The notes under the pieces were generated by a model. It was not told where the DNA came from. It made no database searches and saw only the letters and a list, made by a program, of their open reading frames with translations. The position numbers and the translations under genes are program-made. A stretch of 64,000 bases of DNA from Lytechinus pictus (taxonomy: Eukaryota): positions 14,944,001 to 15,008,000 of the forward strand of contig NC_087245.1 in the NCBI RefSeq assembly GCF_037042905.1, read 5' to 3'. Positions 5,243 to 51,704 of this stretch are shown in pieces (the first letter of the stretch is position 1; each line of letters opens with the position of its first letter).

Positions 5243-5660
5243 GGGTTTATTTCCAATCGGTCTAATGCCAATTCATCTAATTACTAACTCGTTGACTTTC
5301 ATTTGGTCTATCATAAATTTGTCCACTATCCATATGGTCTACTTTCATTTAGTATAATGCCATTCCGTCTAATAACCACTTGGTCCAATAGCCATTTAGT
5401 CCATAAACTATTTGGTCTAATTGGATAAGTATTAATGGGGCAAAATGAATGAAAAGAAAATGGGTATTAGACCAACTGGTTATTAGACGAAATGGTCATA
5501 GACGAACTGGTGATTAGACAAAGTGATCATTGGACCAAATGGTTAATGGACCAAGTGGCCGTTAGACGAAATGTTGATGGGATGGAATGGCATTAGACTA
5601 AATGAAGGTAAACCATGTGATGAGTGGACGAGTTGGCAATAAACGAATCGGCAGTTTACC
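5243..5660. mobile_element. Foldback/MITE-like element built from ~18-20-bp degenerate units (TAGAC(C/G)AA(A/C)TGG) in inverted orientation
   Basis: The left half carries CCATTT.GTCTA-type units and the right half carries their reverse complement. Boundaries are approximate. Confidence 0.6.
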
Positions 5661-16200: not shown

Positions 16201-17272
16201 AACTTAAAGATTCATTGGATGTAAAGTGCACCAGTACTACATCAAAATGAATCTGATGTTCTGTCAAATAAAACAATGAAGTGAGTATAATGTAAATGAA
16301 GGCTTATATTTCAATAATTTCTTAGAAAGAATGGTTGAGATGTTTTACTTTCCACATAGCAATGAGAGGTGAATCGATTTTAGGCCAATCTCCGCGTCAA
16401 ACTTCTTATCGAAAATGTTGATGATTGTATTCCACAAAGATATAGGCTATTCTTTCCGACCACATTCACATAATGACAACATTCCCAAGGCTCTATAGGA
16501 GTTTCATTTAATCAAAATTATGATTACCCGGAATACCCGCTGACACAGCGAGAATTATAGGTCCTGCGTTTTTTGTTTTAAATGAAAATGAACTGAAGTT
16601 GATGATATTACCGATAACATGAAAAGGAGAAGTTTCGACTGAAATTTGTAAGCCCGTAGTTACAACTTCTAGTCAAATGACTACCATATAAAGCGTATTC
16701 ATGCAGTATAAGGGCGGCTCTATTTAATCCGCCAATGTATATAGAGAAGACCTCACCCCTCCACATCTGGCGATGGCGATGATAAACATTGGAAGGGGAC
16801 CCCCCCCCCCCTTTCGCTGGTCATATTTAAAGGAGAAATGGGCCTACGATAATTGTCTGTTTTGCATATCATTTTTAAAGTAAGAATTATGTAATTTTTC
16901 GTCTAGAACATTTTATTTCCTTTATCGCCCCTGGCGTGTGGTATAATAGTCTTGGGCAGCCGCTGCAGTGTGTAGTTTGTGATGACAATGATCACTTTGA
17001 ACCTATTACGCATCACCCTTTATAAATAAATTTCTAATCTCTCGTGTGGGGACCTTACGATTAAAATGTGTTATTTTCATTAGCATCATTTTATTTTATG
17101 AAAATTAGCATTATCATGGATACGGCGCACTTGATAAATAAACAAGGTATATTTCATGTTATTGCCAATTTCACTCATTTGCAACATGCTGTACCCGGCA
17201 GTTTTCAACTTTTAAGAGGGGTAGTTTGCATTATTTGATAGCAGTTAATACAGGCCTACTCATATTAATATA

Positions 17273-18008
17273 AGTAGTTATGGGTGAGACCTCATACCAA
17301 CTTGACCTTTGACCCGGTCAGCCATGACCTTTGACCCATGACCTTAGACCACATGACCTTTAACCCGGTCATGACCTTTGACCACATGACCTTTAGTCCG
17401 GTCAGCCTTTGACCACATGACCTTTAGTCCGGTCACCCACGCCCTTTGACCACATGACCAATACCCCGTTCAGCCTTTGACCACACGACCCGACGGCCCT
17501 AACCCAGACTTCCGGTCAGCCATGATGTCACCATGAAATGGTATTACGACACAGTTATGCAACCACCATGATGTCATCCCAGGGCATTACCCTTATTGCA
17601 CCATCGATATTGCACCACCGTGGCGTCATCGCCACGTATTGGTGATTTTCGGTCGACCTTATCACACGATGCAGCGACGTTGCACGGGTATTTTTAGCAT
17701 ACGATACGATGCACAAAAAGACATCTATACAGTTTCTTATTTAAAAAGTGATCATTCTCCGCCTACCAGCGGATATGTCAAGCGCCTCGCATGACGTCAC
17801 CAGCTACGCAAGCACCGTGATGTCATCCAAGAGAATTACCCTTTACCCGGTATTGCACCACCGTGGTGCAATCGTCATCGCCACGTATAGGATACGATGC
17901 ACATAAAAACGACGTATGATTTCTATACAGTTTCTTATTTAAAAAGTTCTTTCTCCGCCTACCAGCAGATATGTCAAGTGCCTCGCGGTTCACGATCGAT
18001 CACCCCAT
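17273..18008 (+). repeat. Left terminal inverted repeat (736 bp) of the Polinton-like element
   Basis: Reverse complement of 19646-20363 apart from four indels (14, 18, 2 and 12 bp) and a few substitutions. Confidence 0.95.
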
Positions 18009-18688
18009 ACACGCCCAACGCTCGTCATTGAACTAGGGAGATCATATTCAAGGTGAGAGCCGACTCTCTCTGCCTCTTAATTATTACAACAATTATTGGT
18101 AATCCAACATGTGATTATAATCATGATAATAGTGATATCTCTAGGCTCTACTCATTCCAGACTTTTCCCCATCAAAACTCTCTGACTTTTTCATACTGTT
18201 TTGTTCATACTTTTCATTTAACTCACATGACCTGCCCGGCTCTCTGACTCGCAAAAAGTATACTATATTGAAACCGGTAGATGACACCTTTAAATCAACT
18301 TCATTCATCCGCAGTACAGATGGTGATAACATGAAACACTATATAGTCAAGGATGATTCTTTATTACTATCATCATTTATTCTATTCCATTTCAATGTAG
18401 ATAGGTTCAGATATTGTATAAACAGCAGATTTTGATACAAAGGTAAAATAATGTAAGTTATGTTCTCAAATTATGTTGTAATAACAAACTAATTGTTAAC
18501 TGTTCATTGTTGATATTACAGTGAAGTTCTCGTTTTTCCATATTTTCGCTTAACTTAATGGATTGTAACATATGTATATGGATGGCATTCAGAAAATATC
18601 GGCTATGAACACAATGAAGTTCAATCTGTCATTTATGTTGACGGCGTTTTCTTGGATTATTATTATTTGACAAGCTGATGTGTGTGCC

Positions 18689-19342
18689 TTATTGGTTGTA
18701 GGCTCCATCTTCACCCTCCGTTTCTTCTCCACCATCATCATTATCGTCATCGTCACCTTGATACTGGAATAAACCATCGAATTGTGAACCATGCCTGGCT
18801 AACACTCTCTGTACGGCTTTCCGGAATTCCATGCCATTCTCTAATCTTTCCATGAGATCGGACACGATTTCATGATTGATGTCAGCGTCTTCGAGGTACA
18901 CGTTCTGCTGCAAAAACTGAGAGTAAAGATCGAAAAAGATGCGTTTGACTGCCTAGAGTAGTTTCACGTGAGCCTTTGCTTTAGCGTCTTCTTCTTCCAT
19001 TCCTTCTGAGATGTATTTCTGATATTTTTCGTCTCTCAAGTCCTTGGTGGCTGTCATGGCTTGCTCTAACCATCCTCGATAAGCAAGGTTGTCTTCAGTT
19101 TCTTCCATGTTTGCTGTCATTGACGAATCGTGTCCATCGCTTTCTGATACGCTCCTTTCGGAATCATCGTTGGATTCTTCAACTCTTTGCATTTGAGAGG
19201 GTGGGTCGGAGTCTTCATCTTCACTCGTTTCTTCTCCAGTATCATGCTCATTTTGTTCATGCCTCTGCATATCATACTTCCTACTAAAGGTTTTATCGCA
19301 TCGTGAACAAGCGTAGCGTTTGGACATATCCAACGTATTCAT
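18689..19342 (-). pseudogene. 217-codon C2H2 zinc-finger/acidic ORF within the Polinton-like element, interrupted by one in-frame TAG at 18955-18953
   Basis: YACSRCDKTFSRKYDMQRHEQNEH matches CxxC-x12-HxxxxH. Track ORFs 19342-18953 and 18913-18689 share a frame and read ...HVKLL*AVKRIFFDLYSQFLQQNVYLED... across the stop. Confidence 0.75.
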
Positions 19343-19451
19343 GTTGACTCAATGATTATTTGCTGGGAAATGAAGAAAATTAACGTTCAACCTTGTAATA
19401 ATACGTAATCATGAAACGCGCGCGAATGTACTTCGATTACTCACATATTTT

Positions 19452-19646
19452 TACGGATTCTACGGATTCTTACGGATTTTTACGGATTCGTACAGATTTT
19501 TACGGATTCTTACGGATTTTTACGGATTCGTACGGATTTTTACGGATTCGTACGGATTTTTACGGATTTTTACGGATTCTTACGGTTTCGTACAGATTTT
19601 TACGGATTCGTACGGATTTTTACGGATTCGTACAGATTTTTACGGA
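19452..19646. repeat. 10-bp tandem array TACGGATT(TT/CG/CT), about 20 units
   Basis: Directly visible; abuts the inner edge of the right TIR. Confidence 0.95.
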
Positions 19647-20363
19647 TGGGGTGATCGATCGTGAACGGGATCGTGAACCGCGAGGCACTTGACATATCTG
19701 CTGGTAGGCGGAGAAAGAACTTTTTAAATAAGAAACTGTATAGAAATCATACGTCGTTTTTATGTGCATCGTATCCTATACGTGGCGATGACGATTGCAC
19801 CACGGTGGTGCAATACCGGGTAAAGGGTAATTCTCTTGGATGACATCACGGTGCTTGCGTATAGCTGGTGACGTCATGCGAGGCGCTTGACATATCCGCT
19901 GGTATGCGGATAAGAAACTGTATAGATGTCTTTTTGTGCATCGTATCGTATGCTAAAAATACCCGTGCAACGTCGCTGCATCGTGTGATAAGGTCGACCG
20001 AAAATCACCAATACGTGGCGATGACGCCACGGTGGTGCAATATCGATGGTGCAATAAGGGTAATGCCCTTGGATGACATCATGGTGGTTGCATAACTGTG
20101 TCGTAATACCATTTCATGGTGACATCATGGCTGACCGGAAGTCTGGGTTAGGGCCGTCGGGTCGTGTGGTCAAAGGCTGAACGGGGTATTGGTCATGTGG
20201 TCAAAGGGCGTGGGTGACCGGACTAAAGGTCATGTGGTCAAAGGCTGACCGGACTAAAGGTCATGTGGTCAAAGGTCATGACCGGGTTAAAGGTCATGTG
20301 GTCAAAGGTCATGGCTGACCGGGTCAAAGGTCAAGTTGGTATGAGGTCTCACCCATAACTACT
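19646..20363 (-). repeat. Right terminal inverted repeat (718 bp) of the Polinton-like element
   Basis: Inverted copy of 17273-18008. Confidence 0.95.
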
Positions 20364-22796
20364 AATATAGCTCTATCAAAGTGATTAATGAATAGGCCTA
20401 TACCAAAAAGAGTGGTGATGGTAATGGTATAATAATGGAAGGTCATGGTGAAATCGAGACTTCTGTTATAGTGGAATAATCCAGCACTGTGTTGATCACA
20501 GGCAGTGGCGGAAACCGATGAGGGAAGAGGACCGAACGTCCAAAAAATTACTGAATTCTATTTCCAACATGATAAGATGATAATATTTACGGGGTTTCCT
20601 TGACCGTGAGGCCTATTCAACTTTCTAACAAATTCTATGCCAGAATTTGCTACTTGATTTGAAATGTGGTAATTTTAGAGCTCGCGTCTTTCGCTCGCGC
20701 GCAATTTATTTCTGAAAACGTACACCGGATCCAAAACTATAAGTCCCGATAAATTTTGCCGCATTTCATTTTTTATTATACAAGTTTTACTAAATTTACT
20801 CCATACGCAGAACTGACGATTCTTGTAAATTTTAAACTTGTCTCTATTTAAAAAACATTTCAGTCAATAATGATTCGTTCACATTTTCAAGGAAGTCTAG
20901 ACTAGGGATTATACACAAATAAGAAAAGTAATTAGCTTAGAAATAGTTGTGTCGTCTAGAAATACATCTAAAGGATTAGGAGCCCGCCTAATACAAATAT
21001 GTAATTTCTTTTCATACCACCAAAGGCCATATACCACTCTGTATTTTTTACCTTTTCTTTGGCCGCTTATCAAGTCCCCCCAAAATCAAACTTCGACCAA
21101 CTGCTGCTCTCTCGTGGGACTTAAAAAAATAACCCTCTCTATGTTCCATGAAAAAAATAATACTCAATTAATGACCCTTGAAGTTGTATTTGCAATATTT
21201 TACACACAAAAAATCTACCACACCAACCTAATTACGGGCCGAGGAGAAATCTATACTACCCTAAAATGGCAGGCCTGCATAAAATGGTATCCATTTATAT
21301 TGTGTTTACATATTGTGAGTGACGCAACATGGCATGTGGGACATGCATAAAACAAAACGCCAGCGAGGGAAGAAAATGGAATTTAAAAAAAGGAATATCA
21401 CATTTCCTTTCACTTTCATTTTCTTCATTTTCTCTTCTTTTTTTTTCTTGGTCATGAAACTTTTCTTTGGTCAATTCGTGCCACAAGCCTCCATCTATGA
21501 TATAATTATTTCAGTGGACATGATGGATGTGAGAAGTTGTGGGTGTAATGTTTTCGCGTTGGAATACCTGTTAAACTTATTTAAACGTGAGTCGAATCAT
21601 GTTTCAAAGTTTGCCAGCTTTAACCATGTTAACGTCTATAGCTTCTGTTGTCTTCATCCATCCCACAATCATTATCTTTAGTTCCTTATATTGAATTCTA
21701 ACAAAACCGTCCTTCCAAACATCAACATGTCACACTGGACTTTGTTACTTTTAATCTGACAATTGACATAGAGACATGCCTGCGTTTTCCTTTTTAAATG
21801 TTTACTCAGGTTACCATAGTATATACTTATGATGAAATACTTTTGCAAGTACATGATCACAAAGAATGCAACCGATCATTATTGATGCGGTAGGATGTTT
21901 CAGGGACGTTGAAATTTGGTAAAAGAGCTATTGAAATTGATTAATCGTCGTGAGCAATGGATATTTAAACGTATTTATCTCCGGCAATACAGACGTATTA
22001 GGTGCTGAGTAGACGCCAAATTGTTTTACCATAGCCCTATTCCATGGCGTCAGTCCATTTGACTCAATTTCGGAGTTAATTGACAGATGGAATGATCTTA
22101 ATCCTTGGGTCCATAGAGCGAATCTAAACAACAAAGAGATGAGATGGTAGATTTTAAAGTGTTAGGTCGTGTAAAAGATACTGAAATTATGCAAATAAGA
22201 ATAGATAGATGTAAATGGATGTCTATAATACAAGAGATCAATATTTAACAGATGACGATGTTTCCGTAAAAATATACACGTCTTTCAAAAGTGCACTTTA
22301 ACAATGTCAAAGCAGACGGCTTTTATACATTCTGAATGTCAGATGAGCTGAAGTTTTGAATTCTGTAGGGAATATCAGAAAACAGATGGATGGTCTGTGG
22401 TGACAAAAGGCAAAATAAAAACAAAACGTAATAAAATGATACAACAAATCTTACAAAAAGAGTGAATTTCAATCCTATATTATAACTAAAAACAAGAATA
22501 TAAATCGTTCGGATACTTGCTGTCGATCGTCCATGCCTCAAAAATCATATAATGGATCTTCCATCATTGCAAACGTCATGAGTTCAGAAACGATAGTATT
22601 ACATGATCAACGGGGGAGGGGGGGGGTGTACATGGAGAAAAATAAAGAGAAACTCATCTAGATTTTTTTTTCTTTGATCACCTTTTGATCAGCAAACACT
22701 TTCCTATGTATCGGGTAACCAGTATAAGGAGTAAAAGATAACAATCACGCCACATGCACTTTTTCACGTTTTACCAGCGTGTATAAAGTTACCTAG

Positions 22797-29553: not shown

Positions 29554-30798
29554 TCAACGAAATTGCGACTGCCATGTATAAACAAACAGGTATGTCTCTG
29601 TGCAGATAGCGATCGATCCAGGACATGGGACAGCTACAGAAAGCCACTGGAACTTGGGAATCTTCAGATTTCTTGTCAAACTTTCAAAGAACTTCCCTTC
29701 TGACGAGTACACATCTATTGAGACGCACTTCTCTACCCCCTTCCTGGAAAATACGACGTAGATATTGTCATTCTGGTCGACTGCACACCATGCACTCGAC
29801 CAGTCTTCCTGGTGTATTGCAGAGAGGATGGATCCGTTTTGGTGCACGAGTTTAATAGCAGGTCCGTAAGGAGGACAAGGATCAGCAACCAAAAGATTGC
29901 CTGTTGATAGAACGAAGAGCTGCCAAGGGGTGGTAGCACCGGTTGGGATGGTTCGAAATGCTTTTTTAGCATCACCCTTGAGATCAAACAGAAATATCTT
30001 CTCCAGCTCGCAATCGCCTACAAAGAGCATGTCGTCCTTGTCCGCGGTCACAGAGAACATGAAGCAAGTCTCCTGCGGACTGTGTATCTGTAAGGCTTCC
30101 CCTTTCCTGCTGTAGACATGGATTTGACGGTCAAAGCTTAGCAAAACCAGAGTCCCATCAGGACGGACTGTCATGTCTCGCACAGTCACGTCATTGACCA
30201 ACCGTTTAATTCCAAAATCGCGTCGAAAGATATCAGCGCCTCCGGATTCATGTCCAATGACCACACTGCCATCAGGTAGTGAGGTCAGACTTCGCTTCGC
30301 GTGGCCAGGGCATTCTGGTAACTTGATAGATGCTATAAGTCGAAGTATCTTAGGCTGTACTATATGTCCTATAGACAATTTCGAGTTCGCGTTCTCGCGA
30401 TTGAATTGGATATCGTTTAAGAGATCTAACACTGCTGTGATATGTTCCTCGATGTAGGCAACCGGATCATCCATATCAACCGATGCATAGCGTCCGATGA
30501 CGGAGAAGCAGCCGACATTGTTCTCGCGCGATTGGTCATCTCTCTTGGAGGCATATCCCATCCCGACCTCTCTAAGCTTGTAGTCGAATTCCTCAATCAT
30601 CCTCTGAACCTGTAGAAGAAGGGTTCGCCTGCACTGTTCTATCTGCTGCATGTCCTGATCAGCTGCTTCTAGAATCTCTTGTCTAAGGGACTCCATTCTT
30701 TCTTTGATGATGGATCCATACTTTTCCAACATGTCCATCCCATCTCCTGGGGTTCCCTTAAGCAATGAGTGGGTGTCCAAGTTACCACCCTGAGCCAT
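29554..30798 (-). CDS. 414-aa coiled-coil plus NHL-like beta-propeller protein (TRIM-NHL-like, no RING/B-box), single coding exon
   Basis: Longest ORF in the window. Helical E/Q/R/L-rich N-terminus, then repeated propeller-blade motifs (LPDGSVVI, VRPDGTLVL, ADKDDMLFVGD, LSTGNLLVAD, AVDQNDNIYV). Good start context AGGATGG; splice acceptor at 30822-30820. Confidence 0.85.
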   Translation of the reverse strand: MAQGGNLDTHSLLKGTPGDGMDMLEKYGSIIKERMESLRQEILEAADQDMQQIEQCRRTLLLQVQRMIEEFDYKLREVGMGYASKRDDQSRENNVGCFSVIGRYASVDMDDPVAYIEEHITAVLDLLNDIQFNRENANSKLSIGHIVQPKILRLIASIKLPECPGHAKRSLTSLPDGSVVIGHESGGADIFRRDFGIKRLVNDVTVRDMTVRPDGTLVLLSFDRQIHVYSRKGEALQIHSPQETCFMFSVTADKDDMLFVGDCELEKIFLFDLKGDAKKAFRTIPTGATTPWQLFVLSTGNLLVADPCPPYGPAIKLVHQNGSILSAIHQEDWSSAWCAVDQNDNIYVVFSRKGVEKCVSIDVYSSEGKFFESLTRNLKIPKFQWLSVAVPCPGSIAICTETYLFVYTWQSQFR

Positions 30799-31866
30799 CC
30801 TGGATTTTTATCAAGGCACCTGAAAAATAAACAAATGGGATAATATATTTAATTTAATCTTACACAACAATAATGTCGGTCAACAACAATTTCCACCCAC
30901 ACATATCTGCATCTGCATGTTTTTTAATACCAAAATAATTATGTTTAAAGTTTAGACCAACTGCTTGTCTAAACTAAAGAAAAATAAAATTTTCCCAAAC
31001 ATTTACTTACTATTCGACCCACTAATGTATATATAACATGACTTGTTTAAAAACGATATTTAACAAAAATCAACCATTTACCAGTGAAACTTAGCTTACT
31101 TAAACTTAATCAGAAGACTTTCTTGAACTGTGTAACTCCTCTGATTGATATAGAAAAAAAAATCGAGCTTAAAGTGGAAGCTTCACCGATCTCATTATTT
31201 CCGCTGAGTTTTTCAGTCAGACAACAAGACTTGTGTTATATACAACAATCACTGTATGCATTTATCATTTTTCACACCCGTCAAAGCATTTGGCGCTTTC
31301 CATTTGTCGTAGCAGCAATGCATCTTAATCAAGAGTATGGAAGTTATATTCCCCAAGAAGGGAGTAAACATTAAATTATTTCCCTGGGTGAATGAAAAAT
31401 AAGACTACTGGCAAGAAAATTTGACAACCATTAGCTAATTTTACAGGAAAGCGTCCTTGCAGACAGTGATCACTTTCAAGAGACAAAACAAACAACCGAA
31501 CATGCTAAAGGGAAAAAGTCTTCAATTTCAACATCGAGGCTCACAAGTAGTACGTCAGAAATGTGTCGTTTTTACAATCCACTGAATGACGGTCATGATA
31601 GTAATGATTCTTTTCTTTTATTTTCTTATTTGATTTTACATGTCACCATACGTCGTTCTATCCCTCTATTCTTGCTAAATTATGGAACGTTTGAACCCCA
31701 AGGCTTTGTTCAATGTGTGAAGATTGCAAAATATCTCTCGAGGAAGGTGTCGCAGCGCGAAAGTAATATCCATATCATTTCTGAAATTATAGGGCATGTT
31801 TTGAGAAAGTCATATCGTCATTTTGAATGCTGGATCATAATGCTTACCAAGAATATGCCTCTTATA

Positions 31867-32685
31867 CAGTGCGTCCCACAAAAAACGAAACCGAGATTTA
31901 TCGATGATTTATCATAACTTAATCGCAAATACAATAGACAAATGACCTACCATTTTAAAGCTTAGAATCTCCTCTTTCATCTGAAATTACTTAGATTATT
32001 TCTCATTCATGCATGAGTGAGCAAAAACAATTTGAAAAGGGGATACCAAAAAGTCACTTGGCGGGCCGGATCTGGGTTTTAAAAAGAAAACCACATTTTT
32101 AAAATGTTCAATATCTGCTCTTTAATTTGATACCTCAATTACAGAAAATGGTCAAGAAATAACAAAGTTCTGGTTATTTGAAATAAGGCTTGAATTTCAA
32201 TAATTTTATAAAATGAAGAGGTTTAACAGGCTAGCGTTCAAACTCACTCGACACTCCGTTTTGTTGACGATCAGCCATGCATTAAGTCTTTTGTTACCGT
32301 GCGATAGCTTCTGTGGGAAACCAGTGAAAACACGTTTATTTAATGAAATTATGGAAATACAAGCATTGCTTCGAGGGATCATAACTTTTTTACTACTTGA
32401 CCATTTGCTGTGATTTAGGTATCAAAGAAAAGAGAAGATGTTGAACTTTTTAGTCATGTGATTTTCTGTTTGAAATTCAGATACCCCCCGCCAAATGAGT
32501 TTTTGGCATCCTTTCTTTGAATTGTTTTTGCTCAATCATGCGTGAATGAGGAATAATCTAAGTAATACCAGATGAAAGTGGAGATTCCAAGCTTTACATT
32601 GGTAGGTCATTTGTCTATTTTATTTATGATTAAGTTATGATAAATCATCGCTAAATCTCGGTTTCGTTTTTTCTGGGACGCACTG
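31867..32685. mobile_element. Tc1/mariner-type MITE, 819 bp, long inverted arms
   Basis: TA|CAGTGCGTCCCA.AAAAAACGAAACCGAGATTTA ... TAAATCTCGGTTTCGTTTTTTCTGGGACGCACTG|TA; imperfect inverted symmetry extends about 300 bp. Confidence 0.88.
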
Positions 32686-34077
32686 TATATAGAATGAATG
32701 TATCATCTTGAACATTTAAAAGATGATAAATGTACGCTTATACTGTCAGGGTTTTTTAAATCAAAATACCCTACAAAAAATTATTATAAAAATATAGAGG
32801 TACAGATTTTTTTTAAAGGCTTAAACCATTATGCAGTCACTCCCTAAACTGGCAACAATGTTTATCTTTTTTACCCATTTACATAATTTTACGAAATATC
32901 ACGTAAGTAAATGATTGCAAGATTGCACACAAAAAATGCCCGTTCGCATTTTAAGTTTTGTAATTTAATTGTTCGGTTTAAAATGTTGCTAATATAAATT
33001 AGTGTTTAGCTCAAGTGATTACTTTATATTGTGATGAAGAGGGTTATTTTTTTTCAGTACATCTATTTCTAGTTATATTGCGCGCATTCAGTATAAACAT
33101 ACTCTGCCAAAGGGTTGTCAAGAAAACACTGTACCTGTAAGCATCTGTTAGCTCATTGGTTTTTATTTTGGATCATCTCCTTATCAATCCTATCGTAGAT
33201 TGTGTCGCCTTCTTAAAAGGAAATGTAGGATTGGCTTTCAATCTTAAAATAACCTCCCAGAATACAATGAACTTTCTAAGTAATAACCAATTATCTTGAA
33301 ATCGGTTGTTTTTGCTATCATTCTGTTAGTAACTTGTTGCAATAAGGGTCAAATCCAAAACTTAATTGAATATCTTACTTTTTCAATACAATTCTGTATT
33401 TTCTCTACACTACACTCTTTAAAAAAGATATTGCCTGTTTTAAAAAATAGCATCTCTTCGACAGAGGCGGCGTCAGATTTGTGGGAGAGTAAACGAAAGG
33501 GTGACGCCATTAGTTAGAGCCACAGTCTCGCCACACTGTGACCTCACAACAGAAATTAGGTATACTCAACATCTGAGGGGTCAGTACGTTCAAACAATAT
33601 CACTAGTAATTTTGGCAATTTCTCGTGTTAATCGAGTCAATGCTTCATAAGACAAAACTTTTACGAACACCGATGAACAATCCCAGTTTTAAAACCAATA
33701 TGAATAGATATTTGATAAAAGTTAAAAACCATACCATTACAACAGAGATAAAGCATCCAAGTAAGATTGGGCTTGATGACGAATATTTAATTCATCTGAT
33801 GTGAAAATAGTGCCAAATGCTTCCTTCTTTAAAACTAGAATTTCGAGGAAGCCTTGTGACCTCTTGACCTCACTATCCTCACTACAACAGTCCATTTTGA
33901 TGAACATTTTTCATGAATAATGTAATGTATATATTCTATATAGGGCTTTAACTGATCAACAAGAACAGAAAATATTTTGTTATATCTTATAAAAGTCCAG
34001 CCAATTGCTATCTTCATTAGATATTAACATGACCGAACAACAAACATTGACCAATAAGGAATAGATGTAGTGTGAAC

Positions 34078-47659: not shown

Positions 47660-48972
47660 GCTGAAGCTTCTAAAGCCTGCGCAGTACGGGTTGTTTTGCC
47701 GGAGAGAATGCCCTTTCTTTTTCATTACGTTTGAGAAACCTTAAAGTGGTAAATTTCACATTAATGGCTTTTTATTGTATTCATCACAGGATGGTGCTCA
47801 ATGCGCTCCAACATACTGAACAATTAAATCAAAAACAAATCCGTATTCCATGTATTTTTTTATTATTAATTAGTAGTGTGTGTGAAAAAATATACAACCG
47901 GTCCACCGCCGTAAAGATTATAGCACTCCCTTAATGATTTGAAGTGATATCCAATGTAATTTTTTCATTTAGTAAGCTTTGATCTTTTCATCATTTGAAT
48001 AAATAATGGAAAGCATTGATGAGGAAAACAACAATCGAAAGATACCTTGATTATACCTTTTACGCAACTCATCTCCTCCTTCCCTCTGTACTCATTATAT
48101 TTCTTTAGTTTTTTTAATAATCTTTTTGTTAGTTCTTTCTTCTTATTTGTCTCTTGTCTACTTAATGTCTTCTCCAGTTTCTCATACTTCTTATTTTTCT
48201 TCTCCTCATTCTCTTCGTTCTCACATTCTTCGTCTTTCACTCCTCCTTCTTCTCCTCCTCCTCCCCTCCTACTCCTCTTCTTCTCTCTCTCTTCTTCGAC
48301 CTTCTTCCCCTGCTCCTCGTCCTCCACCTTCTTATTCCTCTTTCTTCTCTCAGAGGTCCCTGCTTATGCGAGAGATGTTCAAGAGAAAACTCGCCCCTCG
48401 ACCATTTACATTCTATGTGATTGATTTTCCTTTCTTTTGTCCCAATTTCAACAAGTCTTCAGCCATTGAAAGCATGTAAATGATGGGACATGCTCTTGAA
48501 TTTGATCAAGGTTTGACCAGGGAACCCGGGAACCCCCTGGTTTGACTGGCGTTATTGAGTTTTTAAGTGATATCTGAAGCACACCTGCCCCCCTCGTTGT
48601 TGTTTCTGTTAGTCTTGCAGGGAAAATAACACCTAAACTCAATAAAGGAAAGACCCATCGGAAGACTCATCACAAGTCAAGCACCGTCCTCGGGTTTCTT
48701 CTCTTTTTTTTACCCTATGCAGTGACCTATATAAACAAAAGTAGGATATTAATGCTGGTGCATCGGGGGGGGGGGGGGGAGGTATGATGAAGCTACCACA
48801 TGAAGTAGCTAAATATCCATCTCATATTTTATACAAAATGTGTGAATGACATGTTAATGATCGCCTGTTGCAATCTATAGCAAGTGGTGATAATGATTAA
48901 ATCACTAGTTACTGATCGCCTGTCGAAAACTGTCACAAGCGATGATAACGTGTAAATGTATGGTGCCCATGA

Positions 48973-49661
48973 AGGGACATCGCAAATAGACCAAATCGCG
49001 AATATTGACAACGAAATTCACGACGTCGCCGATCCCGTCGTGAAATTCGCGACGATATTCACGATGCCGCCAATATCGTCGTGATTTCGTTTCCAATTTC
49101 ACAACGAAATTCACGACATCGTGAATTTCGTCACCAATTTCGTCGCAAATTATTCACGACGCCGCGAATTTCGTCATGAATTCGTTTTGCTTGCTTGTAC
49201 TTTTAACCATGCTTTCTGTGAAAATGGTAGGTTTTATCTTCAAATTATGATCCTTTGTAATTTGTACAAAGTGGAATAAGTATGTAGATTTGTTTGATCT
49301 AAGGCTTCCACCGCCTATAATTCTAAGTATTAAAGTTGTTGAAGACTACCGGTAGGCTAGATCGATATTTCTCGTTTCTTAATTCAGTGCCAATCCCATG
49401 CCAACATGCACGTGTCCAACTAGAAATCATAGTCGTCTTCTGGCGCTTGTTCGAGGACCGCCCAAGCAAGCAAAACAAATTCACGACGAAATTCGCGCCG
49501 TCGTGAATTTCGTAGTGAATTATTCGTGACGAAATTGGCGACAAAATTGACGATGTCGTGAATTTCGTAGTGAATAATTCGTGACGAAAATGGCGTCAAA
49601 ATTGACGATGTCGTGAATTTCGCCGTCAATTCTCGCGATTTGGTCTATTTGCGATGTCCCT
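48973..49661. mobile_element. Foldback-like MITE with ~200-bp modular inverted arms
   Basis: TIR AGGGACATCGCAAATAGACCAAATCGCGA; arms made of CGAAATTCACGAC units and ending in TTTTGCTTGCTTG / CAAGCAAGCAAAA; TSD unresolved. Confidence 0.8.
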
Positions 49662-51704
49662 GCAGGGCCATCATAAATTATGAATGACATGTCAGTGATC
49701 ACCATTTTCTATTGTTAGCGCTACCCATCGCGAGTGGTGACCATGTCTGAAACCGCCCAGAGAATCATTTCTACATTCTCAGAAATTATTTAAGGTTCGT
49801 TACCTTGCTATATATTTATGAACCTACCACCTGTAGCTCCCTCCCCCCTTCCCCATCAAGCAACCTTATTACGTGCACACCACCGAATGGCGCCTTGTTG
49901 GTTCAGTTCACCAACTGACAAACTGCTTGAGTTAAGAAGCCCTTCGCAACAGCAAACCTGGAGGGTGACTATCTAATGGCAGTGGCGCCTGCATACAAAA
50001 CACGTTCCAATAATATTGGTCGCTCCGTGACTTGATGTAATTGCCTTTCTTGGTATAATTATATAGAAGAAATCGTTTCCCAGGTAAGGACTATAACCCT
50101 CAAAATTCACCATTGTCTATTCCTAGGAAAACGTGACGCATTACCTAATAGGAGAAAACAGACACATGAATAATGCACAGGGTTTTGGCTCATCACACGA
50201 CAGAATTTGAGGGATGCAATATATATATCTTCATCTTAACTTATACAAATGTATTTTGAGTTGAGTAACCCATTACTGCGAGATACATTTGTGGGATTAG
50301 GTTATGACGCGTGTCGTCAATCACCAGGCGCAGATCCAGGTGATGGGAAAACATGGGGCAAGTGCCCCCGCCCCGCCTCCTCCTACGCCTCCCTTAGCAC
50401 AGACCATACACACCTTTGCAAATTTACTTCCTAATATGAGAAGAACTCTCTATTTATAAAGTAAATTTTTTTAATCATTTTACCTGTCAGATTTCGTCAT
50501 CCGTCATTCCGTCATTATACCCCCTTTTCTCTTGATCATGTTGATACAAAAGTATCGTACCCCTCTGCTATGAAATCTCATGAATCCACCCCTACCGTGA
50601 AAAACGATCACTCTGACCGGGAATAGAACACTGTTTGCAGATCCTTCATGGTTTTCCACAAATTGTCTTGGGTTTCGTTTCTGACTGTGCAGGCGGTTTA
50701 GGAATTAATGGCTTTCTTAAACAACCTTAAAGGTAGCTAAGTAATACTGCTTCAGGTTGGCTGTGACTCGTGGAAGTAATGAAGCCAGCTCAACAGAAGT
50801 TTGAAAGAAATCGGGATGATTATGAGAAAAAACCTACAAAAGATAGAAGTATATATTTTTTACAATTGTTCTTTTTACCACATAAAAGTACCTTCGAAAC
50901 ACGAGAATGATTATTTCTTGTTAAAGACGTCATTTGGTTTCATAGAGCTATCAAATTGTGAATAATAAAAGAACTCGTGGCTGAGTGATGATAGGCGTAC
51001 AAAATTAGTCTCTTAATAAATTATATAGTCATATTTTATTAGATTGTCCGATTGTAGGGCGAAAGGCGAAAAAATAAGTCGTCCAAGAATACCCCAATGT
51101 AAATACATAAATTTGATAATACCTCCAGAAATCAGAAAATTAATTTTGCGTCGCCTTGCATCCGCATGCCACAAGCTAAAGGGAAAGGAAGTAGATAGAC
51201 TCGAGCAACAGGAAAAATTCATGGCAGAATTCACCGAAGGCTGTAATTCAATTGATTTGGACATTTATGAACTGATATACTAGGAGGGAAAGGTATCTCT
51301 ACATATTTTAGTCTTGTCCATTCTAGCCTAATTTATATTAGGCCTATATGAATCGTCAAGATGGTCGATTTTTTGTGATAATCATACCAAGATTATAATA
51401 AGAGCACAAAGTCAAACTTCATCTCATCAATTGTAAAACGAAAATCAAGTCATTTGAATGTGTTTTTATTATTATTCAATGTGTCGATAAGCAACAAGAA
51501 AATGTATTTAAAATCATTCAATAAAATCTGCATATTCATTACTTTCTTACTAAATACGGACACTTTTAATCAAACTTGGACTTGGTAATCATTAAGAATC
51601 ATCACTGGCAACGTTTTTAATGCGTTATTAATTGTTGAAATACTGAAACCATAATGCAAAACATAATTGCTATGTTTACTACAGCAATCGTATATAGCGT
51701 TATA

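Follow-up and report, generated by a model that had tools for sequence, protein, structure and literature searches.

Mostly palindromic elements with Polinton ends and a zinc-finger gene: a probable satellite family in Lytechinus pictus

A 3,091-bp element in the genome of Lytechinus pictus raises the question of whether it is a satellite mobilised in trans by a helper Polinton or a single copy that was deleted after insertion. Polintons (Mavericks) are characterized, in the parts of two published accounts considered here, by a 6-bp target-site duplication (TSD), (AGT)2//(ACT)2 or (AG)3 ends and long inverted termini (PMC8097293, PMC6431247).

The element in the window

The window is a 64,000-nucleotide stretch of the genome (NC_087245.1, positions 14,944,001 to 15,008,000, forward strand), from whose first letter the following features are numbered:

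17267..17272, no strand: left copy of the 6-bp TSD
17273..20363, no strand: whole element, 3,091 bp, assigned to satellite family A as a one-armed member
17273..17490, plus strand: left terminal domain, an (AGT)2 tip with 15/31/68-bp tandem repeats
17273..18008, plus strand: outer left arm, 736 nt (the left terminal inverted repeat, TIR, of the first-pass annotation)
18009..19446, plus strand: inner left arm, single copy here, in both arms of palindromic members
18689..19342, minus strand: 217-codon gene encoding a C2H2 zinc finger, acidic linker, helical domain and acidic tail
19447..19647, plus strand: 10-bp tandem array of about 20 units
19640..19660, plus strand: copy-specific junction, where the array is fused straight onto the outer right arm
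19646..20363, minus strand: outer right arm, 718 nt (the right TIR of the first-pass annotation)
20364..20369, no strand: right copy of the 6-bp TSD

The two flanking 6-mers are identical, the termini read (AGT)2 on the left and (ACT)2 on the right, and alignment of the two ends (736 and 718 nt, 47% of the element) showed 2 substitutions and 4 indels; the element, its TSD, its (AGT)2 ends and its 736/718-bp inverted repeats, all described in the first-pass annotation, are real. Since a 19-nt end pattern had 133 matches in the whole genome, compared with none for the reversed control, the element lies far beyond chance expectation. The same annotation held that replication, integration and capsid genes are missing, and tblastn comparison of the pPolB, integrase, ATPase, protease and capsid-like proteins of a coexisting Polinton with the element (locus L001) indeed produced no match. 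The helper protein that we take to be capsid-like, judging from its size and position, had no match in Pfam or PDB. The left terminal domain likely serves as origin and integrase site. Two features had been overlooked: the minus-strand zinc-finger gene and the 10-bp array.

A dispersed family of palindromes with a gene of its own

The core of the window element recurs, at 87-94% identity, in dozens of dispersed relatives. Both ends were present at 44 of the 52 loci examined in the genome, and 41 of these 44 copies are flanked by perfect 6-bp duplications, which differ between copies; the dispersed insertions for which the first-pass annotation had proposed a genome search thus exist. Its ~3.1-kb form is nevertheless not the unit of the family. 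Whole-element palindromes, palindromic over at least 85% of the half-length, account for 31 of the 44 copies and are mostly ~5 kb long (family range 3-6 kb); a further five carry both gene copies plus insertions, and eight are one-armed. In palindromic members the 10-bp array lies on either side of the centre, in both orientations, and a centre motif is common to 30 of the 36 copies that have both arrays. The same centre variants recur, by inheritance, at loci that differ in their duplications, indicating that palindromes transpose as palindromes. A fold-back artefact of assembly was rejected, because duplications flank each copy, the arms differ slightly and the centres are conserved across loci. 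Homogenisation of the arms is evident in 28 elements, where 82 private substitutions in all occur in both arms as against 38 in one arm; in a nearest-neighbour check, seven of the 28 did not have their own other arm as strict nearest neighbour, which counts against the explanation that we prefer. A frame that continues unfolded in L123 contains, at locus L118, a new fold-back with 2 nt of microhomology.

The gene in the window copy is interrupted by an in-frame premature stop at codon 130 (18953-18955), a stop that none of the other two-ended copies (44 in all) has at this codon. Values of dN/dS, computed from open frames only (so that the within-family value is biased down), were 0.13-0.20 between subfamilies and 0.32 within family A; judged from these comparisons, the gene is under purifying selection. 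Its helical domain was not found among 5,944 frames in 35 Polinton stretches (best E 0.69, compared with ~1e-50 for controls), and no Polinton with the zinc-finger gene was present in an incomplete helper list comprising the stretches retrieved at 15 of the 18 pPolB loci and two further, end-matched elements known only via their ends. Within those 35 stretches, the family thus appears to have what defines a satellite, a gene of its own that is under purifying selection and absent from the helper. Of 299 gene candidates in total, 149 lay outside the scoring.

Concerning the function of the product, a Polinton ATPase or ATPase tail is fused to four of 91 distant homologs of the helical domain (predicted proteins). 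The AlphaFold model is of low confidence (pLDDT 58.5, pTM 0.33), and a structure search of the PDB with it yielded nothing at E <=0.001, only weak zinc-finger rows; a profile search of PDB sequences gave nothing but zinc fingers in the best 60 of 274 rows, and the ESM Atlas no usable match. Our guess is that the protein acts on DNA or on the packaging step of the helper. Related loci were absent from 528 candidate stretches in viral contigs and occurred in one of 469 in metagenomes, on a 1.4-kb contig without context. A search for RNA data sets containing the element listed none. In one raw RNA run of 8.7 million reads, 66 fell on the core; they covered both strands and were mostly 90-95% similar, which represents low family-level transcription at most, and nothing for the window copy.

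Ends shared with coexisting Polintons

Three loci of 16-17 kb, belonging to one Polinton family, have the same kind of end as family A, and Pfam scoring of two of them (C6 and C21) detected pPolB, integrase and A32 ATPase. The search suggested in the first-pass annotation for a full-length element with related ends therefore succeeded, with a 17-kb Polinton, and its view of a young insertion with Polinton-type cis signals is supported as well. Matches to these Polinton ends were found for 28 of the 44 copies (280-574 aligned nt, 81-96%), and the longest exact terminal matches, each to a different one of three helper ends, reach 43, 57 and 68 nt. Fifteen copies have a short helper match only. 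The window copy is one of them: it aligns over 98 nt at 78%, with at most 8 nt of exact terminal match. The helper subfamily of this copy is therefore missing from the Polintons compared, a point against our preferred explanation. Nucleotides 1-179 of its left terminal domain are 74-78% similar to the ends of the 17-kb Polinton family; past ~nt 180 nothing matches in the Polintons sharing its ends, nor did the family core have a DNA or protein match in the helper stretches. A core without helper match, carrying its own gene, means that the window element is not a deleted helper genome.

Terminal identity is below 80% in 8 of 29 core-close pairs (within 0.3%) and above 90% in 40 of 297 core-distant pairs (at least 3% apart). 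These alignments indicate that end modules reassort against the core, although overall terminal identity and core distance are still correlated (Spearman -0.51), which counts against it. The same gene lineage occurs on five end types, three of which (A, B and D) match full Polintons:

Type A: partner, the C6/C21/C17 Polintons
Type B: partner, the C8 Polinton (96% over 377 nt)
Type B': partner, polymerase-only elements (94% over 813 nt); no integrase-bearing partner found
Type C: no partner found
Type D: partner, the C3 Polinton (95% over 965 nt)

A 16.2-kb pair of type C ends, considered as a helper, proved to be a multimer of the satellite. With ends common to coexisting Polintons, the elements likely ride on these as satellites.

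Origin, alternatives and relation to known systems

We consider it probable that the window element belongs to a dispersed, non-autonomous and mostly palindromic family with Polinton ends and one conserved zinc-finger gene, that coexisting Polintons copy and integrate this family in trans, and that this copy has lost its centre and the inner part of its right arm. It lacks the conserved centre, the reverse array and the second gene copy, and its palindromic share is only 47%. The junction, searched in the whole genome with up to two mismatches, matched only itself; given this uniqueness and the missing centre, the 'TIRs' are likely remnants of arms, left by a one-off deletion of a palindromic satellite. 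Both possibilities raised at the outset are therefore partly right, the family being likely trans-mobilised and the copy likely deleted, and what falls is the deletion of an autonomous Polinton. The best reading of the family is that of gene-bearing snap-back satellites, mobilised in trans and changing helpers through end capture. The pPolB of the helper would prime at the (AGT)2 ends and displace one strand, which, thanks to its self-complementarity, would fold back on itself as a hairpin with a single open origin. Replication around the hairpin would then regenerate the palindrome, so that one captured end might be enough for a new replicon. Insertion by the helper integrase would create the 6-bp duplications. 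If templates were switched while satellite and helpers replicate together, end modules would pass between them, and the core would occasionally receive the end of another Polinton family.

Arm-to-arm conversion is known in long palindromes. It could also homogenise the arms here if the Polinton integrase moved the family while palindromes arose by fold-back repair and stayed identical by gene conversion within the chromosome, with no free hairpin replication; many small asymmetric deletions in the centres and a stop codon common to both arms of L057 fit this scheme, which we find unlikely because loci that differ in their duplications have inherited the same centre variants, and because end modules are exchanged with helpers, more easily in co-replication. 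It is more doubtful still that the window layout (end, gene, array, end) is an ancestral monomer with true TIRs of ~730 bp, from which palindromes formed by copy-back. Such one-armed copies do exist, and that of L053 breaks, by a different junction, within ~16 nt of the arm position of the window copy (short arm 741 against 725 by BLAST); a preferred monomer boundary would explain this as well, which counts against our preferred explanation. The junction of the window copy is unique, however, and the copy lacks the centre that L053 and 30 of the 36 palindromes retain; the short arms stop at scattered positions (<50 to ~1,300 nt), and the window core is nested within the family in the core tree.

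The perfect duplication and Polinton ends would equally suit a lone autonomous Polinton whose core genes disappeared once it had inserted, a reading made highly improbable by the lack of a match beyond ~nt 180 and by the dozens of dispersed relatives. Just as little credence is given to a foldback-type DNA transposon mobilised by a cut-and-paste transposase of non-Polinton kind, despite the very long inverted arms containing internal tandem repeats. Foldback transposons (FB, Galileo and the sea-urchin TU) have a cognate cut-and-paste transposase and 7-11-bp duplications; in the family studied here the duplications are of 6 bp, and the long elements sharing its ends hold pPolB and integrase. 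Moreover, 6-bp duplications with (AGT)2/(AG)n ends are a Maverick signature in the portion of the source considered (PMC8097293).

As probable trans-mobilised satellites, the members of the family can be compared with systems of several kinds. As portrayed in the portions of the literature considered, autonomous Polintons share its duplication, (AGT)2//(ACT)2 ends, long inverted termini and the end sequence of coexisting copies, but are 15-25 kb long and encode pPolB, integrase, ATPase, protease and capsid, absent from the 3-6-kb satellites, which are usually whole palindromes and whose core bears no relation to the helper. Non-autonomous Polinton derivatives, with helper-type ends, no enzymes and dispersed copies, were reportedly described by Kapitonov and Jurka in 2006; the likeness extends to a duplication for each copy, whereas our family is not an internal deletion of a helper, has its own selected gene and uses the ends of several helpers. 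The pGKL1 derivatives F1 and F2, reportedly described by Kikuchi in 1985, and those of kalilo and pSLA2 are palindromic or hairpin forms of protein-primed linear plasmids. They too are palindromic duplexes around a short unique centre and would, under a pPolB, alternate with a hairpin of half the length. Unlike the present elements, they do not integrate, and each arose by deletion from its own parent plasmid, in the laboratory or in nature. A whole palindrome with a short unique centre is also the form of snap-back defective genomes, and that of 31 of the 44 copies here. AAV snapback subgenomes, in the part of the account considered, are self-complementary, keep one end and occur in both polarities (PMC8235507), here paralleled by B and B'. 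Those are, as described there, transient products of the parent genome by hairpin-primed replication, whereas the satellites are heritable, integrated, likely protein-primed and carry a gene absent from the helper. The phage satellites P4 and PICI are small helper-dependent replicons with conserved genes of their own. Transpovirons, in the passages considered, are likewise helper-dependent with own genes, and are linear with inverted termini (PMC5499653). Unlike these, the present family has no integrase, replicase or helicase of its own, relies on captured helper ends and is palindromic. We found no description of palindromic or gene-bearing Polinton satellites in the literature searched, which did not extend to Repbase Reports, supplements and most subscription papers; entries in repeat libraries could already list these families.

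With about equal weight for and against, we propose that animal Polintons have satellites of their own, an old lineage, defined by a zinc-finger/helical gene from the packaging module of Polintons, that persists in the form of integrated snap-back genomes that hop between unrelated Polinton families by single-end capture and fold-back, and may be a eukaryotic counterpart of P4 and PICI. The window copy itself is damaged, and the interest lies in the family that it exposed. To our knowledge, the replication, integration and packaging of Polintons have been modelled and hardly observed, and dozens of young satellite insertions would provide natural read-outs of these processes. Reassorting end modules may map the cis requirements of the helper, whole palindromes predict half-length hairpin intermediates in native DNA, and the zinc-finger/helical protein, with its link to the packaging ATPase, is a candidate effector. 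One conserved gene on the ends of several helpers would add a parasite-of-a-virus layer to animal genomes.

The window element and its probably truncated arm

Alignment of the two ends confirmed the element recognised in the first-pass annotation: an insertion of 3,091 bp (17273-20363), with an identical 6-mer on each side, (AGT)2...(ACT)2 termini, and inverted repeats aligning over 736 and 718 nt with four indels and two substitutions. The end motif and the duplication length are the same as those of Mavericks in PMC8097293. Our verdict is that this insertion is a damaged, one-armed copy belonging to a family of gene-bearing palindromic Polinton satellites, i.e. non-autonomous elements with Polinton-type ends (family A).

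Features of the window element and usual layout of its family
19342-18689, minus strand: 217-codon gene (C2H2 zinc finger, acidic linker, helical domain), with a stop at codon 130
19447-19647: 10-bp tandem array within the window element
Usual satellite, mostly 4.4-5.8 kb: end, arm, gene (outward), array, centre, reverse array, gene, arm, end

The zinc finger was assigned to the C2H2 type by Pfam (E 9e-5, a match below the curated threshold), and the nearest named database homologs of the gene are from the sea urchin Lytechinus pictus. The terminal repeat units at 17323-17490 presumably resemble nuclear-receptor half-sites in direct repeat.

In the window copy the array directly abuts the outer right arm and the centre is absent. 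This junction has a single match genome-wide at up to 2 mismatches, which speaks against the 3.1-kb form as the family unit. The short arms of other asymmetric copies terminate at varied positions, and the window core branches inside the family tree, at a distance of 3.2% from the closest of the sampled relatives. Taken together, the unique junction, missing centre, scattered short-arm ends and nested core lead us to infer that the copy is a palindrome from which the centre and the inner part of the right arm were deleted, either before it inserted or afterwards. Locus L053 speaks against this deletion: it breaks near the same arm position, with another junction and the centre kept. The 2 substitutions between the arms, in 693 paired positions, point to a recent insertion, provided that the arms did not undergo conversion afterwards.

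Elsewhere in the window, three more hairpin-like or internally repetitive inverted repeats (31863-32689, 48955-49679 and 5303-5647) are probably MITE-type elements. An intronless 417-aa open frame (29554-30807, minus strand) looks, by eye, like a coiled coil at its start and like a propeller in the rest.

A dispersed family and one gene on five end types

A DNA search of the same genome (23 of 209 candidates scored) yielded at least 214 matches, with nt 1-2375 of the element matching mostly as inverted pairs, and a degenerate 19-nt end pattern was found 133 times vs 0 for the control. We examined 52 loci, the window and 51 others, many picked for paired ends, a sample that leans to complete copies. 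Both ends were present in 44, and 41 of these have a perfect 6-bp duplication; of the remaining three, the first differs at one position, the second becomes perfect once an additional terminal trinucleotide is counted in, and the third lacks a duplication. These loci show dispersed insertion with Polinton footprints. The two-ended copies comprise palindromes over at least 85% of the half-length (31/44), copies with both copies of the gene plus insertions (5/44), and one-armed or otherwise asymmetric copies, including that of the window (8/44). A centre motif, often accompanied by a small inverted repeat, whole or partial, is common to 30 of the 36 copies with both arrays.

At G000:C17:8134560-8181441 (loci L111-L114 of this genome) about a dozen palindromic units, repeating every 4.1 kb, make up an array of ~47 kb, in which a left tip opens each unit and one 6-bp duplication bounds the whole; the array may reflect tandem amplification, concatemer integration or an assembly artefact. 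Palindromes of 1.9 kb folded within the gene, without recognised ends, occur at three loci (L126:3786-5690, L127:3579-5437 and C15:18525298-18526455).

A protein search with the gene (150 of 299 candidates scored) revealed further subfamilies, B, B', C and D. The end of B is that of a 17.3-kb Polinton on C8 (96% over 377 nt), and D shares 965 nt at 95% with a 17.2-kb Polinton on C3; tblastn detected polymerase, integrase, ATPase, protease and capsid-like genes in both Polintons. In B' (L116, L118) the B core is folded in the opposite sense, with the gene pointing inward, and the end of L116 is 94% similar to the end of a 14.6-kb element whose sole detected gene is a polymerase. Type C ends are of a kind of their own; among the loci examined no partner element was found. 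Both ends were present in 7 of 16 non-A loci, with matched duplications in all seven, and in 5/5 further type C loci, again with matching duplications.

Several related structures were observed. Two 14.5-kb Polinton-ended elements (C19:4647614-4662238 and C29:1070203-1084533; L131-L134) may represent a semi-autonomous class with a polymerase alone: a divergent pPolB and small zinc-finger frames were all that was detected in them. The inverted arms of the C19 copy, 3,446 bp long, are 100% identical. More than 20 B' tips, all in the same orientation and spaced ~2.9 kb apart, are arrayed in tandem at G000:C15:2051528-2099092 (L145), and the zinc-finger gene was not found in the stretch examined. 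Subfamily B has a second frame, of ~147 codons in L123; at the DNA level this frame is 86% similar to sequence next to a degraded C17 Polinton (compare L074:1749-2468).

Pairwise dN/dS among 56 unique open frames (broken copies excluded) was 0.13-0.20 for comparisons across subfamilies and 0.32-0.46 for those inside a single subfamily; judged from these frames, the gene is demonstrably under selection. A helical-domain profile was run against 5,944 frames from 35 Polinton stretches without a hit (best E 0.69; controls ~1e-50). A profile run against 1.84 billion representatives listed 150 matches, of which 91 have the helical domain, preceded in 4 of these 91 by a Polinton-type ATPase or its tail; from these four we consider the gene a likely packaging-module accessory in other Polinton lineages. 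The low-confidence predicted fold of its product gave matches limited to zinc fingers.

Candidate helper Polintons and exchange of ends

A pPolB search identified 18 loci. Three loci (16-17 kb, on C6, C21 and C17) have ends of the family A kind and 6-bp duplications. In these candidate helpers Pfam scored pPolB and integrase (C6 copy) and an A32 ATPase (C21 copy); a protease-like protein matches a viral cysteine protease, and a further gene, to judge by its position, may encode the capsid. By the left end of the helper family lies a gene for a PC4-like single-stranded DNA-binding domain (L042:337-1029; PF02229, E 1e-7).

The ends of these helpers are matched by 28/44 satellites over 280-574 aligned nt (81-96%) and in the tip region only by 15/44, among them the window copy, with 98 nt at 78%; one has no match. 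Past its terminal domain the window element has no match in the three helpers, and its derivation by deletion of a helper was rejected on this ground. What stands of the earlier interpretation, a miniature Polinton either mobilised in trans or deleted once after insertion, is a dispersed non-autonomous family with individual duplications and Polinton-shared ends.

The tips are hypervariable, with 28 left-tip types among 44 copies, and the two tips of a copy are identical in 41/44. Three satellites match the tips of three different helper ends exactly (43, 57 and 68 nt). Terminal identity is below 80% in 8/29 close-core pairs and above 90% in 40/297 distant-core pairs, with the overall correlation retained (Spearman -0.51 against core distance); in part the ends reassort against the core. 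The two tips of the C6 Polinton (L041:9811, L043:6733) differ, and each exactly matches a separate satellite (57 and 43 nt), suggesting exchange of ends in both directions.

Proposed replication of the satellites

Comparison among copies demonstrates that palindromes are inherited together with their centres and that the arms are homogenised. In 28 elements, 82 private changes are common to both arms vs 38 in a single arm, and the own arm is strictly nearest in 21. Adenoviruses follow a panhandle model of protein-primed strand-displacement replication. From this established replication mode we infer a cycle in which the helper polymerase would copy the satellite starting at an end, the displaced strand would fold back into a hairpin with a single open origin, and a second round of copying would restore the palindrome; conversion within the chromosome remains a rival explanation of arm identity. 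The fold-back point of L118 lies within a frame that continues unfolded in L123, with a 2-nt microhomology and a short spacer, and is, on our reading, a direct trace of new snap-back. A single captured end would be enough for a new satellite type, which would explain both the five end types and the occurrence of two polarities.

The satellite can be likened to the hairpin derivatives reported for pGKL1, and its mode of life would be that of a phage satellite. The satellite is not an autonomous Polinton. Its proposed working is similar to that of a snap-back defective genome (PMC8235507). Neither literature searches nor passages of PMC6431247, PMC8097293, PMC3014272, PMC11414722, PMC5499653, PMC4443254 and two preprints yielded a description of palindromic gene-bearing Polinton satellites. 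We give even odds to the view that these elements are satellites that switch helpers.
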